NCBI GenBank assembly: GCA_964389675.1
Contig: CAYMEV010000012.1
Location: 39,329 to 103,328 of the forward strand
DNA length: 64,000 nt
From: an uncultured Candidatus Sumerlaeota bacterium
GTDB lineage: Bacteria > CAYMEV01
Direction: 5' to 3'
Part shown: positions 48,840 through 52,483 of the stretch, in pieces
Layout: each line of letters begins with the position of its first letter
Position numbering within the stretch: the stretch's first letter is position 1
The notes under the pieces: generated by a model
Seen by the model: the letters and a program-made list of their open reading frames with translations, nothing else
Databases searched by the model: none
Told to the model about the DNA's origin: nothing
Translations under genes and position numbers: made by a program

Positions 48840-49325
48840 TTATGGTGTATTTAAATCTTTCGTCATAAATAATTCCCAGATGCTTTTTTTAATTTTCAGT
48901 TTTTTGAGTTCTGTGGTGAAATCCTTGTCTCTAAGAAGGAATGACAGCCTTGAAAGCATGTTTAAATGCTCGCTTACATGATTCCTTCTGCCAAGAATGA
49001 AGAAAAAAAGGCTAACAGGCATGCTGTCCAATGCATTAAAATCTATGCTTTTAATCGTCCTGCAGATCAATATTACAGGCTTCTCCAGTGCCTGCAGTGA
49101 AATATGCGGGACTGCTATGCCATTGCCCAGGCCTGTGGAATTGATCTTCTCACGTTCCATAAAATCTCTTTTTACCGTCTCTGCATCCTTTTTATCCGGT
49201 ATAATCTTATGTATGCAGAGAATTTCGGAGACATATGCAAACAGATCCCCGGCAGATCCTGCATTGATGTCGGTAAAAACAAGCTTATTACTGGTATAAT
49301 CTATGAGTTTCATAATAAAGGTCAA
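48840..49325 (-). CDS. PTS EIIA type-2 domain protein (PtsN/EIIA-Ntr-like)
   Basis: 161 aa; phospho-His motif GNGIAVPH. Confidence 0.7.
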   Translation of the reverse strand: MTFIMKLIDYTSNKLVFTDINAGSAGDLFAYVSEILCIHKIIPDKKDAETVKRDFMEREKINSTGLGNGIAVPHISLQALEKPVILICRTIKSIDFNALDSMPVSLFFFILGRRNHVSEHLNMLSRLSFLLRDKDFTTELKKLKIKKSIWELFMTKDLNTP

Positions 49326-49441
49326 AAATCCTTAAAAAACAGGTTCAATAAAAATATCCTAAAAAATATCGTTAATATTTTTGAAAAAACTATTTTATAT
49401 ATTATAAATATTGTCAAAATAAAAATGATCAGGGTTATGCT

Positions 49442-52400
49442 ATGATAAATCCTCTATTAAATATACAGATCAAAAGCAGGGATCTTGCCAACCATCATCA
49501 GTCATACCTGCATGTAATAGGCAAATATTTCGGCGAATTAAAAGATGCCCTTGAGAAAAAGGGCCATCTGGAGCGTATTAATCTTTTTACACCAACAATA
49601 AACTACTCAAACGAGATGGAGATTATAAGCGCCTTATCAAATGAACCAAAAAAGCGGATTGAAATGCTAAGCTGCTATTATTCACTGCAACTGCTCATAA
49701 TGAATATAAGGAATCTCTATATACTTAAGTCAAATGTTCTGGATATTAAAGAAAGCAGGACCTTCAGCGATAAATATATCTATTATGAGGATTTTATGAA
49801 GAGGATGGGTTTCAGCTTCAGGGGCCTGTCAGCTTCATACATGGACCAGATTCTGAGGATATATGACCCTAATATTGATTATTCAGGATTTACAATTATG
49901 GGTGTGGGTACGCGTGCAGACCAGGATGATATAGATATTGCAGTGGTGAACAGTGCAGGCGCTCCAACTGCTCCAATGAACAGGGTGTTTTCAAAACTGA
50001 GGGATGATATGATGCGTTATGCTACTCCTCTTCACTTTTACCTTTCTGAGCAGTTCCATTCCTATAAGATGTCAGCTTCAATTGAAGAATATGCGGGAAT
50101 GATAAAAAACAAGTTCTCAAACTTTGTGATAATAAGTGAGATATTGAGTGCAACCAGGATACTCGGTTCCTACACATTATATACAAGTTTCATGGACAGC
50201 ATTGCCTCAAAATATTTCTGTATAAACAAGATAGGGGCAAAATTCAGGATAAATATGTATCATGAGGGTTTTTTAAGAGGGATCCTCGGAGAAGTAAGGT
50301 CTCTTATATCAAAGCCTGACAGGGAAAGCACACTGCATCCAAAAGAAGACGGCCTCAGGGTAATAAAAGGGCTGATATATGCCTTAAAGAGTATTCTTAA
50401 TATAAACAGGACCTATTCATGGGATATACTTTCCGAACTCAGGGAGATAGACAGTGATAATGACGAAAGATATCTTATACTTGCAAGGGGTCTTGATTTT
50501 CTTGAGACCTTCAGGCTGGTTTATCAGATTCTAATATCAGAGGACGAAGAGATACCTCTCAGAGAACAGCATTCAAAAAAGAACCTGCAAAAGGTGGCAG
50601 TTGCAATGGGTTACCGTGATGCAGGAAGCCTGAAGTCTTATGACCACCTTCTTGTCGATTATTATGAACAGACGCATCAGATAAAAAATGCTATAGAATT
50701 CTTCCTTGAAGAGATAAGGGTACATCTTCTAAGGATAAGCAGTCTTAATGCAATTGCGAGAAAGAAGGATCCCCAAAAAGAAAACAGGGAGCATTTCCTG
50801 CTAAGATTTCTCAAGATAAGCAAGCCTTTTTATGGTGCAAAATACTGGGATGACATTATTTATAACCTTGAGAGAAAGGATTACAGCCTCCTGGATGATT
50901 TCTTAAATGAATTCTCACTGCTAAATAATCATCAGAAATCTCTTTTGATCAAATCCTATACAAGGTGCGGCCTTCTTGCAATCCATGCTCTTCTGAAGCT
51001 CATCAACCTTTTGAAGAAGTATTCCTCGAGGAACAGGGATGCAGGGAAGATACTGAATGAGCTTAACAGGAGATTCATCCATAGCCTGTCAAGAAGCCAG
51101 GAGCATGCATATGAATTCATAAAGGTTTTTCATCCATTTCCGGAAATAATTAATTCATATCTTTCCTGTCTTGATACATCTGACCTTGAAGTGCTCATAA
51201 ACAGTATTTCGAAATGTGATGTGTATGAAACTGAACTGACTCTCATCAAAAACAGGCTTCTGAGGCTTATGAGCCTGTATCTTTACGGAAGCCACTATTT
51301 TAAGCGCTATTTTACAAATGTATTTGATAAATTTCCTGAAGTTATAAGGTCTGTAACGGATACCGGCAAGATTAAGGAACTTGCCATTGGATTTTACAGC
51401 AAGCTTCTTTTCAGCAATGACTTTTTGGAAAATATAAAAAACATAGGGCATTATTTTGACCTGGAATTTGTAAGGCTGGGGATCCATCTTCTCGAACAGA
51501 GGCCGATAAGTGAGATAAACAGGGAATTTACAGAGGTTTCAGATGAATGCCTTCAGGCACTGTTTATTTACTCAAAAGGCCTGGTTGAACTTCAGCACAA
51601 TACAAAGATTAAAACGGAAAATACCCTGGGCATTTTTGTATCAGGGGGGCATGCCAGGGAGCAGGCTTTTGCTGATGATTATGATATTATCATCGTCCTT
51701 GACAGTAATGATGAAAAGCTTAAGAACATGTGCTCAAAGATAATTTCAAAGATGAATACAGAGATTATAAGGAGGTCTATACTCCCCCAGTACAGGTTTA
51801 TGGATTATTTTGACAGCTACATTGCCACCTTCTCAGAGATAAGGTCCCTGCTTGAAAAAGACAACCCCGGAATATATGTTGAGCAGTCACAGCTTCTTGG
51901 GTGCAGGCTGGTTTATGGGAGCGAATCGCTTGAAAACCGGTTTTATGAAGGCATAGTAAAACCTTTTATCATTGAGAAGAAAGAAAAATATATCCGGAGA
52001 ATGGCGGACGAGATCATAGAAAGAGCCATTGATAGCCGGAATAACATATATAATATTATAAATATAAAGGAACAGCCTGGAGGCTTGAGGGATATTGAGA
52101 TGGTCCTGCTTATAATAAAGGCATTTCTTGATATCAGGATAAATATCAATTCGGTATTTATTGATGAAGCAAGGAAACAGCTTCCCCAGATTGATCACGA
52201 GATATACTATATCTTCAGGTCAATGAATCTGCTTAAGAACATCAGGGATATCCTCAGGCTTACCACATCCGCATCTGACGAGATTGAGCTTTATGACCTC
52301 GGCTATGCAGCTTCGGTACTGAAGTATGGAACTGCCGGCACTGCTCCTTCCAGGGCTCTTTACAATGATATTGTGAACCGTAGGAATGATGTTATGAGAA

Positions 52401-52483
52401 ATATTTCAAAGATCATGGATTTCATACTGGGGAGCAATTCCTTTTCCCAAAAATATAAGGCATTTAAGCTAAAAAGAATTTAA
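49442..52483 (+). CDS. GlnE-like protein with two nucleotidyltransferase domains (putative adenylyl/uridylyl-transferase)
   Basis: 1013 aa; two Pol-beta-type NTase motifs at about aa 150 (GVGTRADQDDIDIAVV) and aa 740 (GGHAREQAFADDYDIIIVLD), each followed by a helical region; the layout mirrors GlnE. Confidence 0.45.
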   Translation: MINPLLNIQIKSRDLANHHQSYLHVIGKYFGELKDALEKKGHLERINLFTPTINYSNEMEIISALSNEPKKRIEMLSCYYSLQLLIMNIRNLYILKSNVLDIKESRTFSDKYIYYEDFMKRMGFSFRGLSASYMDQILRIYDPNIDYSGFTIMGVGTRADQDDIDIAVVNSAGAPTAPMNRVFSKLRDDMMRYATPLHFYLSEQFHSYKMSASIEEYAGMIKNKFSNFVIISEILSATRILGSYTLYTSFMDSIASKYFCINKIGAKFRINMYHEGFLRGILGEVRSLISKPDRESTLHPKEDGLRVIKGLIYALKSILNINRTYSWDILSELREIDSDNDERYLILARGLDFLETFRLVYQILISEDEEIPLREQHSKKNLQKVAVAMGYRDAGSLKSYDHLLVDYYEQTHQIKNAIEFFLEEIRVHLLRISSLNAIARKKDPQKENREHFLLRFLKISKPFYGAKYWDDIIYNLERKDYSLLDDFLNEFSLLNNHQKSLLIKSYTRCGLLAIHALLKLINLLKKYSSRNRDAGKILNELNRRFIHSLSRSQEHAYEFIKVFHPFPEIINSYLSCLDTSDLEVLINSISKCDVYETELTLIKNRLLRLMSLYLYGSHYFKRYFTNVFDKFPEVIRSVTDTGKIKELAIGFYSKLLFSNDFLENIKNIGHYFDLEFVRLGIHLLEQRPISEINREFTEVSDECLQALFIYSKGLVELQHNTKIKTENTLGIFVSGGHAREQAFADDYDIIIVLDSNDEKLKNMCSKIISKMNTEIIRRSILPQYRFMDYFDSYIATFSEIRSLLEKDNPGIYVEQSQLLGCRLVYGSESLENRFYEGIVKPFIIEKKEKYIRRMADEIIERAIDSRNNIYNIINIKEQPGGLRDIEMVLLIIKAFLDIRININSVFIDEARKQLPQIDHEIYYIFRSMNLLKNIRDILRLTTSASDEIELYDLGYAASVLKYGTAGTAPSRALYNDIVNRRNDVMRNISKIMDFILGSNSFSQKYKAFKLKRI

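Follow-up and report, generated by a model that had tools for sequence, protein, structure and literature searches.

Genes at the locus

The window analysed in this study is a 64,000-nucleotide stretch of contig CAYMEV010000012.1 (assembly GCA_964389675.1, positions 39,329 to 103,328 of the forward strand) from an uncultured Candidatus Sumerlaeota bacterium. It carries an open reading frame (ORF) for a 1013-aa double nucleotidyltransferase (NTase) with the fold of GlnE, which is designated NT2 in this report. On the same strand, the delta, alpha, beta and gamma genes of a four-subunit 2-oxoacid:ferredoxin oxidoreductase (OFOR) begin within approximately 70 bp downstream of NT2, and a stand-alone EIIA gene of the phosphotransferase system (PTS) lies divergently on its other side (Table 1). 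A family of GlnE-fold proteins with OFOR as its genomic partner is not reported in the literature searched.

Table 1. Features of the NT2 locus, in window coordinates.
Feature	Coordinates	Strand	Basis
NT2, GlnE-fold double nucleotidyltransferase (1013 aa)	49442..52483	+	ORF
N-module NTase motif G154-VGTRADQD-D163-I-D165 (GVGTRADQDDID, aa 154-165)	49901..49936	+	Sequence
N-module helical-domain signature P300-KEDGLRVI-K309, a degenerate version of IKExxGGLRDIE	50339..50368	+	
C-module NTase motif S734-GGHAREQAFAD-D746-Y-D748 (SGGHAREQAFADDYD, aa 734-748), GlnE-like G-X11-D-X-D region	51641..51685	+	
C-module helical-domain signature I875-KEQPGGLRDI-E886	52064..52099	+	Within the PF08335 match, aa 853-901
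OFOR delta, 2x[4Fe-4S] ferredoxin	52489..52785	+	Pfam Fer4 families; best NCBIfam model OorD, below its cut-off
OFOR alpha, Kor/Oor type	52806..53954	+	NCBIfam NF006412, 545 bits (cut-off 411)
OFOR beta, thiamine pyrophosphate-binding	53938..54762	+	Best NCBIfam model 2-oxoglutarate ferredoxin oxidoreductase beta, 333 bits (cut-off 364)
OFOR gamma (PF01558)	54777..55313	+	NCBIfam NF006323, 230 bits (cut-off 235)
Stand-alone EIIA (PTS_EIIA_2) with the phosphorylatable-His motif GNGIAVPH	48840..49325	-	Pfam PF00359, E 5.6e-27

Fold and architecture of NT2

NT2 is best explained as a protein nucleotidyltransferase of the cytoplasm, with the GlnE fold, an internal duplication and a helical linker between its two modules. 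The N-module (approximately aa 1-440) is made up of a helical part, an NTase domain and a HEPN-like helical domain, and it is followed by the linker (approximately aa 450-610) and the C-module (approximately aa 614-1008). The two halves are homologous to each other (hhalign probability 99.6, E 1.2e-24, 288 columns), and the order of secondary-structure elements repeats in the AlphaFold2 model, which was built from a 115-sequence alignment (predicted local distance difference test, pLDDT, 90.9; predicted TM-score, pTM, 0.85). Structure searches were run with the whole chain, and their output does not specify which module was aligned. They matched the adenylyl-removing (AR) domain of GlnE (1v4a; score 31.4, 368 aa, 3.2 A; Foldseek E 5.8e-8), the adenylyl-transferase (AT) domain of GlnE (3k7d; 30.2; E 5e-8) and the AMPylation domain of DrrA (6yx5_B; 23.2; E 9e-5). 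The next best matches were HEPN domains, with scores of about 10 and no significant E-value, and the other Foldseek matches were noise. To our knowledge, and in the literature searched, the Legionella effector DrrA is the sole solved use of this fold beyond GlnE.

Sequence profiles pointed to the same relatives. The family profile matched PDB chain 1v4a (E 6e-4), the C-module matched both the AR domain (hhalign probability 93.8, E 1.7e-7) and the AT domain (E 1.5e-5) of Escherichia coli GlnE, and a colinear alignment of NT2 145-929 with GlnE 150-905 gave an E-value of 5e-6. It is virtually certain that the fold of NT2 is that of GlnE, and the architecture of the two proteins is the same as well: GlnE also has approximately 950-1000 aa, with two homologous modules of NTase and HEPN-like domains, a central region between them and a GGLRDIE-type motif in the helical domain.

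The first-pass annotation of this DNA, which was made from its letters alone, had described the 1013-aa protein as a GlnE-like double NTase with two divergent Pol-beta-type motifs, spaced like the AR and AT halves of GlnE. This description was borne out in its coordinates and features, by the structure matches, which were confined to GlnE AR, GlnE AT and DrrA, and by the duplication of the halves. The two motifs are 583 residues apart in NT2, compared with 528 residues between D173/D175 and D701/D703 of E. coli GlnE. Moreover, the metal-binding pairs D163/D165 and D746/D748, whose loss would have spoken against an NTase, are invariant in an alignment of 115 homologues. The C-module motif aligns with G-K-L-G-G-x-E-L-x-x-S-S-D-I-D of GlnE and the signature I875-E886 with GlnE NIKLGAGGIREIE; the signature P300-K309, which takes the form PKxDGLRxIK in N-halves, is paired with its C-module counterpart by hhalign. 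The NTase loop of the N-module is four residues shorter than that of the C-module, where the spacing is near canonical.

In the same alignment, the invariant residues of the N-half were G156, D162, D163, I164, D165, E203, K301 and R306, and those of the C-half were G735, D746, D748, N772, R785, K876, G880 and R883. This set spans both DxD pairs, an acidic residue on the C-terminal side of each and the (I)KExxGGLRDIE-type helical motif. D303 and L305 were conserved in at least 90% of members, and W469 and D471 of the linker were invariant. The D-x-R-L-R-P acidic motif that follows DxD in GlnE is absent from NT2, and E203 in the N-module and D788 in the C-module are acidic residues at alternative positions nearby; position 788 is usually D or E in the relatives. 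Because the key residues are invariant among homologues that share 30-37% identity with the window protein, the NTase motifs are not a product of chance.

Judged by sequence models, NT2 is not recognizable as a GlnE. Its identity to E. coli GlnE is approximately 12%. Of the profile matches expected for the GlnE/GlnD assignment, PF08335 was obtained as the sole Pfam match (aa 853-901, E 9.7e-9, 35.8 bits against a cut-off of 21), whereas PF03710, the GlnE NTase repeat, gave no match at E<=0.1 and all GlnE and GlnD equivalogs failed. The NCBIfam output contained no GlnE model and listed GlnD equivalogs only, at scores approximately 10-fold under their cut-offs (TIGR01693, 46.6 against 519.4 bits). 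In comparison, all 120 enterobacterial GlnE among the matches listed carry both PF03710 and PF08335; these listed GlnE are at least 88% identical to that of E. coli. These NTases bind their substrate through the HEPN-like PF08335 domain (PMC3710099), which NT2 also shares with GlnD, the PII uridylyltransferase/uridylyl-removing enzyme, to whose NTase and helical part the C-module is weakly similar. Unlike GlnD, NT2 has a second NTase module in place of HD and ACT domains, neither of which was found by Pfam. DrrA (SidM; PDB 6yx5, 3nku) differs in being a secreted effector with a single module joined to guanine nucleotide exchange factor and phosphatidylinositol 4-phosphate-binding domains, and its remover, SidD, is a separate protein. 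The MntA-HepT (MNT/HEPN) systems are two-gene toxin-antitoxin pairs of small proteins, whereas NT2 is single, large and duplicated and lies in an operon of central metabolism.

Distribution of the NT2 family

A database search with NT2 yielded approximately 200 proteins of 960-1100 aa with 30-37% identity, all annotated as hypothetical and all from metagenome-assembled genomes (MAGs) of uncultured lineages. In addition, 164 clusters were matched at E<=1e-30 when 1.84 billion cluster representatives were searched with a profile, and a scan of 185,579 species genomes located NT2 relatives in 249. All of the best 80 of these 249 genomes were metagenome-assembled. By the depositors' own labels, they belong to WOR-3, Stahlbacteria, TA06, KSB1, Zixibacteria, Krumholzibacteriota, Marinimicrobia, Calditrichota, Cloacimonadota, Gemmatimonadota, Acidobacteriota and a few others. 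NT2 is thus an unannotated family of approximately 250 species-level genomes from uncultured, mostly Fibrobacteres-Chlorobi-Bacteroidetes (FCB)-related lineages. Neither the window protein nor the clusters closest to it are named in the source databases, and the literature searched contained no account of the family.

The OFOR operon in the window

The neighbouring operon encodes, on sequence evidence, a Kor/Oor-type four-subunit OFOR that is nearer to the 2-oxoglutarate enzymes than to the pyruvate enzymes. The alpha subunit matched 1yd7 (7e-105) and 8ys5_A, the alpha subunit of a 2-oxoglutarate synthase (1.5e-88), far ahead of pyruvate:ferredoxin oxidoreductase alpha (4e-18), and gamma matched 3on3 (4e-61) and OorC (2e-27). 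For the operon as a whole, the matches to 8ys5, 3g2e, 1yd7 and 3on3 surpassed those to pyruvate enzymes by many orders of magnitude. The order and sizes of the genes are those of OorDABC/KorDABC, although no Oor or Kor operon with a GlnE-fold gene is described in the literature searched. Translation of delta probably starts from the ATG at 52550, preceded by a GGAG sequence; the public gene call is 78 aa. No terminator-like site was found on the NT2/OFOR strand between NT2 and the OFOR genes, and an Rfam scan of the window returned one tRNA and no riboswitch by the operon.

Two side observations concern the borders of this operon. A consensus match alone points to a promoter-like site, TTTAAA-17-TATACT (52479-52507, + strand), in the 66 nt between the NT2 stop and ATG 52550, and the OFOR may therefore also be transcribed apart from NT2 in the window lineage. 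Directly 3' of gamma (55318-56250, + strand) are an ORF for a small membrane protein of approximately 93 aa and a gene for a DUF2179/DUF5698 membrane protein; both also follow gamma in the loci L004 and L089 and were not seen in other lineages, which marks them as a clade-specific operon extension.

Conservation of the linkage between NT2 and OFOR

Gene neighbourhoods were compared in the best 80 of the 249 genome loci together with a few metagenome contigs, giving 82 non-redundant loci, 70 of which had enough flanking sequence to be informative. OFOR genes were present within 10 kb of NT2 in 61 of the 70, from at least 12 phylum-level lineages. The nearest OFOR gene was within 300 bp in 38 loci and within 1.5 kb in 20 more (58 in total), and it lay further away but still in the flank in three. 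Most loci have the arrangement delta-alpha-beta-gamma-NT2; the window shares the arrangement NT2-delta-alpha-beta-gamma with L004, L010, L042 and L089. In Zixibacteria, gamma-NT2 is divergent from delta-alpha-beta on the opposite strand, and in Krumholzibacteriota a bona fide PF01558 gamma gene accompanies NT2, but neither alpha nor beta lies within 10 kb. Since the linkage persists through these rearranged loci, gamma followed by NT2 is the conserved core, and the coupling to OFOR is tightest at gamma. Functional coupling of NT2 to the OFOR is highly probable.

Some relatives carry additional genes or domains. NT2 variants of approximately 1100 aa have an HdrC-like dicluster domain at the C-terminus and lie in clusters of OFOR and heterodisulfide reductase (Hdr)-like genes. 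In L086/L087 (protein P0020; 1-15361), where NT2 bears this HdrC-like 2x[4Fe-4S] fusion, one flank holds POR-gamma with HdrA-like, MvhD/FlpD and HdrB/C-like genes and the other holds OFOR delta-alpha-beta followed by HdrC-like and CCG (HdrB-like) genes, so that the locus looks like an OFOR-heterodisulfide-reductase-like supercluster. A CCG-domain gene is also found 3' of NT2 in the Zixibacteria locus L047 (13031-13903).

Furthermore, a conserved gene for a DUF6036-family nucleotidyltransferase of approximately 244 aa, which the window lacks, lies between OFOR gamma and NT2 in L027 (9270-10004), L021 (7605-8339), L018 (7724-8458), L001 (7178-7921) and 18 more loci of WOR-3, Stahlbacteria, TA06, Cloacimonadota and some Zixibacteria and KSB1. 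The product scores 24-27 bits in Pfam against a cut-off of 23.6 and has the motif FIIIGA...WDxDLLF, and in many cases the 3' end of the gene shares 4 bp with the start of NT2. The gene accompanies NT2 even at a locus with no OFOR nearby (L025), and the system may include it as a third component.

Possible function of NT2

NT2, conserved and catalytically intact as judged by its invariant residues, is locked to a central enzyme of anaerobic carbon metabolism in at least 12 uncultured phyla, which suggests that reversible nucleotidylylation controls the 2-oxoglutarate/succinyl-CoA/ferredoxin node. In GlnE, AMPylation is carried out by the C-terminal half and removal of AMP, by phosphorolysis, in the N-terminal half, with a central regulatory region (PMC12409994); DrrA AMPylates a Rab protein with the same fold and G-X11-D-X-D motif, and the substrates of the solved relatives, GlnE AR, GlnE AT and DrrA, are protein tyrosines (PMC12409994). 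By analogy, NT2 would be writer and eraser in one polypeptide and would modify a side-chain hydroxyl group on one of the OFOR subunits, the more canonical C-module serving as the transferase and the divergent N-module as the remover. The modification would most likely be AMPylation, with gamma as the prime candidate substrate, and the helical linker would receive a metabolic signal, joined in some lineages by the HdrC-like domain. The outcome would be a switch of flux between 2-oxoglutarate and succinyl-CoA or ferredoxin. This entire chain, from the reversible nucleotidylylation of an OFOR subunit by writer and eraser to the input through the linker, is put forward tentatively, as a plausible reading that stops short of being probable. 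Its most specific form, in which NT2 is a GlnE-type bifunctional AMPylase/de-AMPylase that acts on a 2-oxoglutarate:ferredoxin oxidoreductase through gamma in response to carbon/nitrogen or redox status, is suggested with somewhat more reserve.

Neither a post-translational regulator of OFORs nor OFOR nucleotidylylation was found in the literature searched. GlnE itself is treated as an enzyme with a single substrate in a recent review (PMC12409994). If the proposal is true, NT2 would represent a regulatory system not recognized before. OFOR enzymes would have their first described covalent on/off switch, and NT2 would be the first GlnE-fold housekeeping enzyme of bacteria to target something other than glutamine synthetase. 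Moreover, approximately 250 hypothetical proteins could be annotated, and models of metabolism for Marinimicrobia, WOR-3, KSB1, Zixibacteria and related groups would acquire a layer of regulation.

Several observations weigh against this proposal. Gene neighbourhood indicates functional linkage and not covalent modification, and it makes the OFOR a candidate substrate of NT2 on indirect grounds only. The N-module by itself had no significant match to GlnE in hhalign, and its link to GlnE runs through the C-module and the whole-chain structure search alone. The D-x-R-L-R-P motif of GlnE and GlnD is absent from NT2, which also fails PF03710, and its chemistry may consequently differ. The linked gamma subunits bear no NT2-specific signature; an NT2-specific residue or a tyrosine in gamma was considered as the acceptor and dropped, and no acceptor residue can be named, because the Geobacter gamma 3on3 (E 4e-61) keeps the same conserved residues. 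In addition, beta, gamma and delta fall just under their NCBIfam cut-offs, which leaves specificity for 2-oxoglutarate over other 2-oxoacids tentative. Finally, nine of the 70 informative loci had no OFOR within 3-10 kb; no other neighbour recurred among these nine, which were flanked by genes for a glycosidase, peptidases, a peptidyl-prolyl isomerase, a CHAT-TPR protein or a dicarboxylate symporter. In two of the loci with no nearby OFOR, labelled KSB1/'Cytophagia' (L028:13684-14907 and L031:13684-14907), the genes after NT2 encode a 207-aa protein of unassigned family and, next, a sodium:dicarboxylate symporter (PF00375).

Those nine loci are compatible with another reading, in which NT2 is a GlnD-like transducer: it would respond to an OFOR-linked metabolite (2-oxoglutarate, CoA thioesters or redox state) by nucleotidylylating a different regulatory protein encoded elsewhere. 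The GlnD-type models that make up all of its Pfam and NCBIfam matches, the large conserved linker with the invariant W469 and D471, and the HdrC-like redox domain fused to some members would suit such a role. This explanation is unlikely: NT2 lacks the HD and ACT domains, its GlnD equivalog scores are far too low, and no PII or recurrent small regulator gene lies nearby, except for the DUF6036 nucleotidyltransferase of some lineages.

It is similarly improbable that NT2 serves the OFOR with no protein modification, either as a stably bound accessory or assembly subunit or as a nucleotidyltransferase whose substrate is small, for example a cofactor or CoA-related compound that the OFOR uses. 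The tight operon linkage, the constant company of the CoA-binding gamma subunit and the missing D-x-R-L-R-P motif are all compatible with this role. Nevertheless, the three close structural relatives are protein AMPylases, a duplicated arrangement of writer and eraser is usual for enzymes that modify proteins reversibly (PMC12409994), and a purely structural role is disfavoured by the invariant catalytic residues in both modules.

The first-pass annotation had itself suggested that NT2 might act on glutamine synthetase, and NT2 could indeed be a divergent but functional glutamine synthetase adenylyltransferase that lies beside OFOR through carbon/nitrogen co-regulation only. It has the architecture and fold of GlnE; the adjoining OFOR resembles 2-oxoglutarate enzymes most closely, and in the GlnE cascade nitrogen status is signalled by 2-oxoglutarate (PMC12409994; bioRxiv 10.64898/2026.09.02.748916). 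The earlier remark that glnA is missing nearby was upheld: neither glnA nor glnB was found in the window by Pfam on ten large candidate ORFs or by tblastn with E. coli GlnA and GlnB (E<=1e-3). E. coli glnE is likewise unlinked to glnA. A tblastn search of 1.43 Mb from 88 NT2 loci also detected neither glnA nor glnB, and linkage of NT2 to these genes was dropped. The conserved partner of NT2 is OFOR, through gamma, and nothing of the glutamine synthetase/PII system, whereas GlnE acts on Tyr397 of type I glutamine synthetase under the control of PII and glutamine. NT2 moreover fails PF03710 and every GlnE equivalog, while true GlnE carry both PF03710 and PF08335, and a lasting gamma-NT2 pair with no alpha or beta is hard to reconcile with loose co-regulation. 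A role as a glutamine synthetase adenylyltransferase is therefore unlikely. The alternative that the annotation had held in reserve, another target, fits better, although the OFOR operon had not been flagged as the conserved partner.

The divergent EIIA gene

EIIA consists of 161 aa (157 from the first ATG), and a 116-bp AT-rich spacer separates its gene from NT2. It had been labelled a PtsN-like protein and paired with NT2. For a PtsN assignment, PF00359, a phosphorylatable His and a score over the TIGR01419 or NF008145 cut-offs were taken together; the first two were present, but the score for TIGR01419 was 63.7 bits against a cut-off of 138.7, and the best NCBIfam model was a fruA-type IIA domain (83 against 103.5). 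The pairing itself did not hold up. By tblastn with the window proteins, an EIIA gene was found at one of 82 scored related loci, L004, at 79% identity. The relative with 72% identity (L089) has no EIIA, and a fusion gene of cmk and rpsA is its direct divergent neighbour; the relative with 52% identity also lacks EIIA and has other neighbours. A further 7-kb contig, L084, carries an NT2 that is 100% identical to the window protein.

Because EIIA lies upstream of cmk-rpsA in the same orientation, it may belong to the transcription unit of that gene. EIIA is a recent, local and lineage-specific insertion and not a partner of NT2, and a conserved EIIA-NT2 pair was rejected on the tblastn survey of related loci and on two neighbourhood look-ups. 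A nitrogen-PTS module in which the phosphorylation state of EIIA controls NT2, as first proposed, is thus very improbable: the divergent arrangement over a common spacer, the retained His motif with PF00359 membership and the recurrence in L004 are outweighed by the absence of EIIA from the 72% and 52% relatives and some 80 other loci, its score below the PtsN cut-off and its possible co-transcription with cmk-rpsA.

Other genes of the window

The cmk-rpsA gene (45974-48718, - strand) encodes a 914-aa fusion of cytidylate kinase (Cmk) and ribosomal protein S1 with at least six S1 domains, and it is kept in L089. Approximately 35 kb from the OFOR operon, a gene for glutamate dehydrogenase, a user of 2-oxoglutarate, lies at 13294-14673 (- strand), and divergent beside it is a gene for a 1004-aa protein in which a phosphoenolpyruvate/pyruvate-binding PPDK_N domain is the only domain (14814-17828, + strand). 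The region 42801-45973 (+ strand) encodes a 676-aa secreted protein resembling type I phosphodiesterase/nucleotide pyrophosphatase, followed by a PAS-HisKA-HATPase histidine kinase with no adjacent response regulator.

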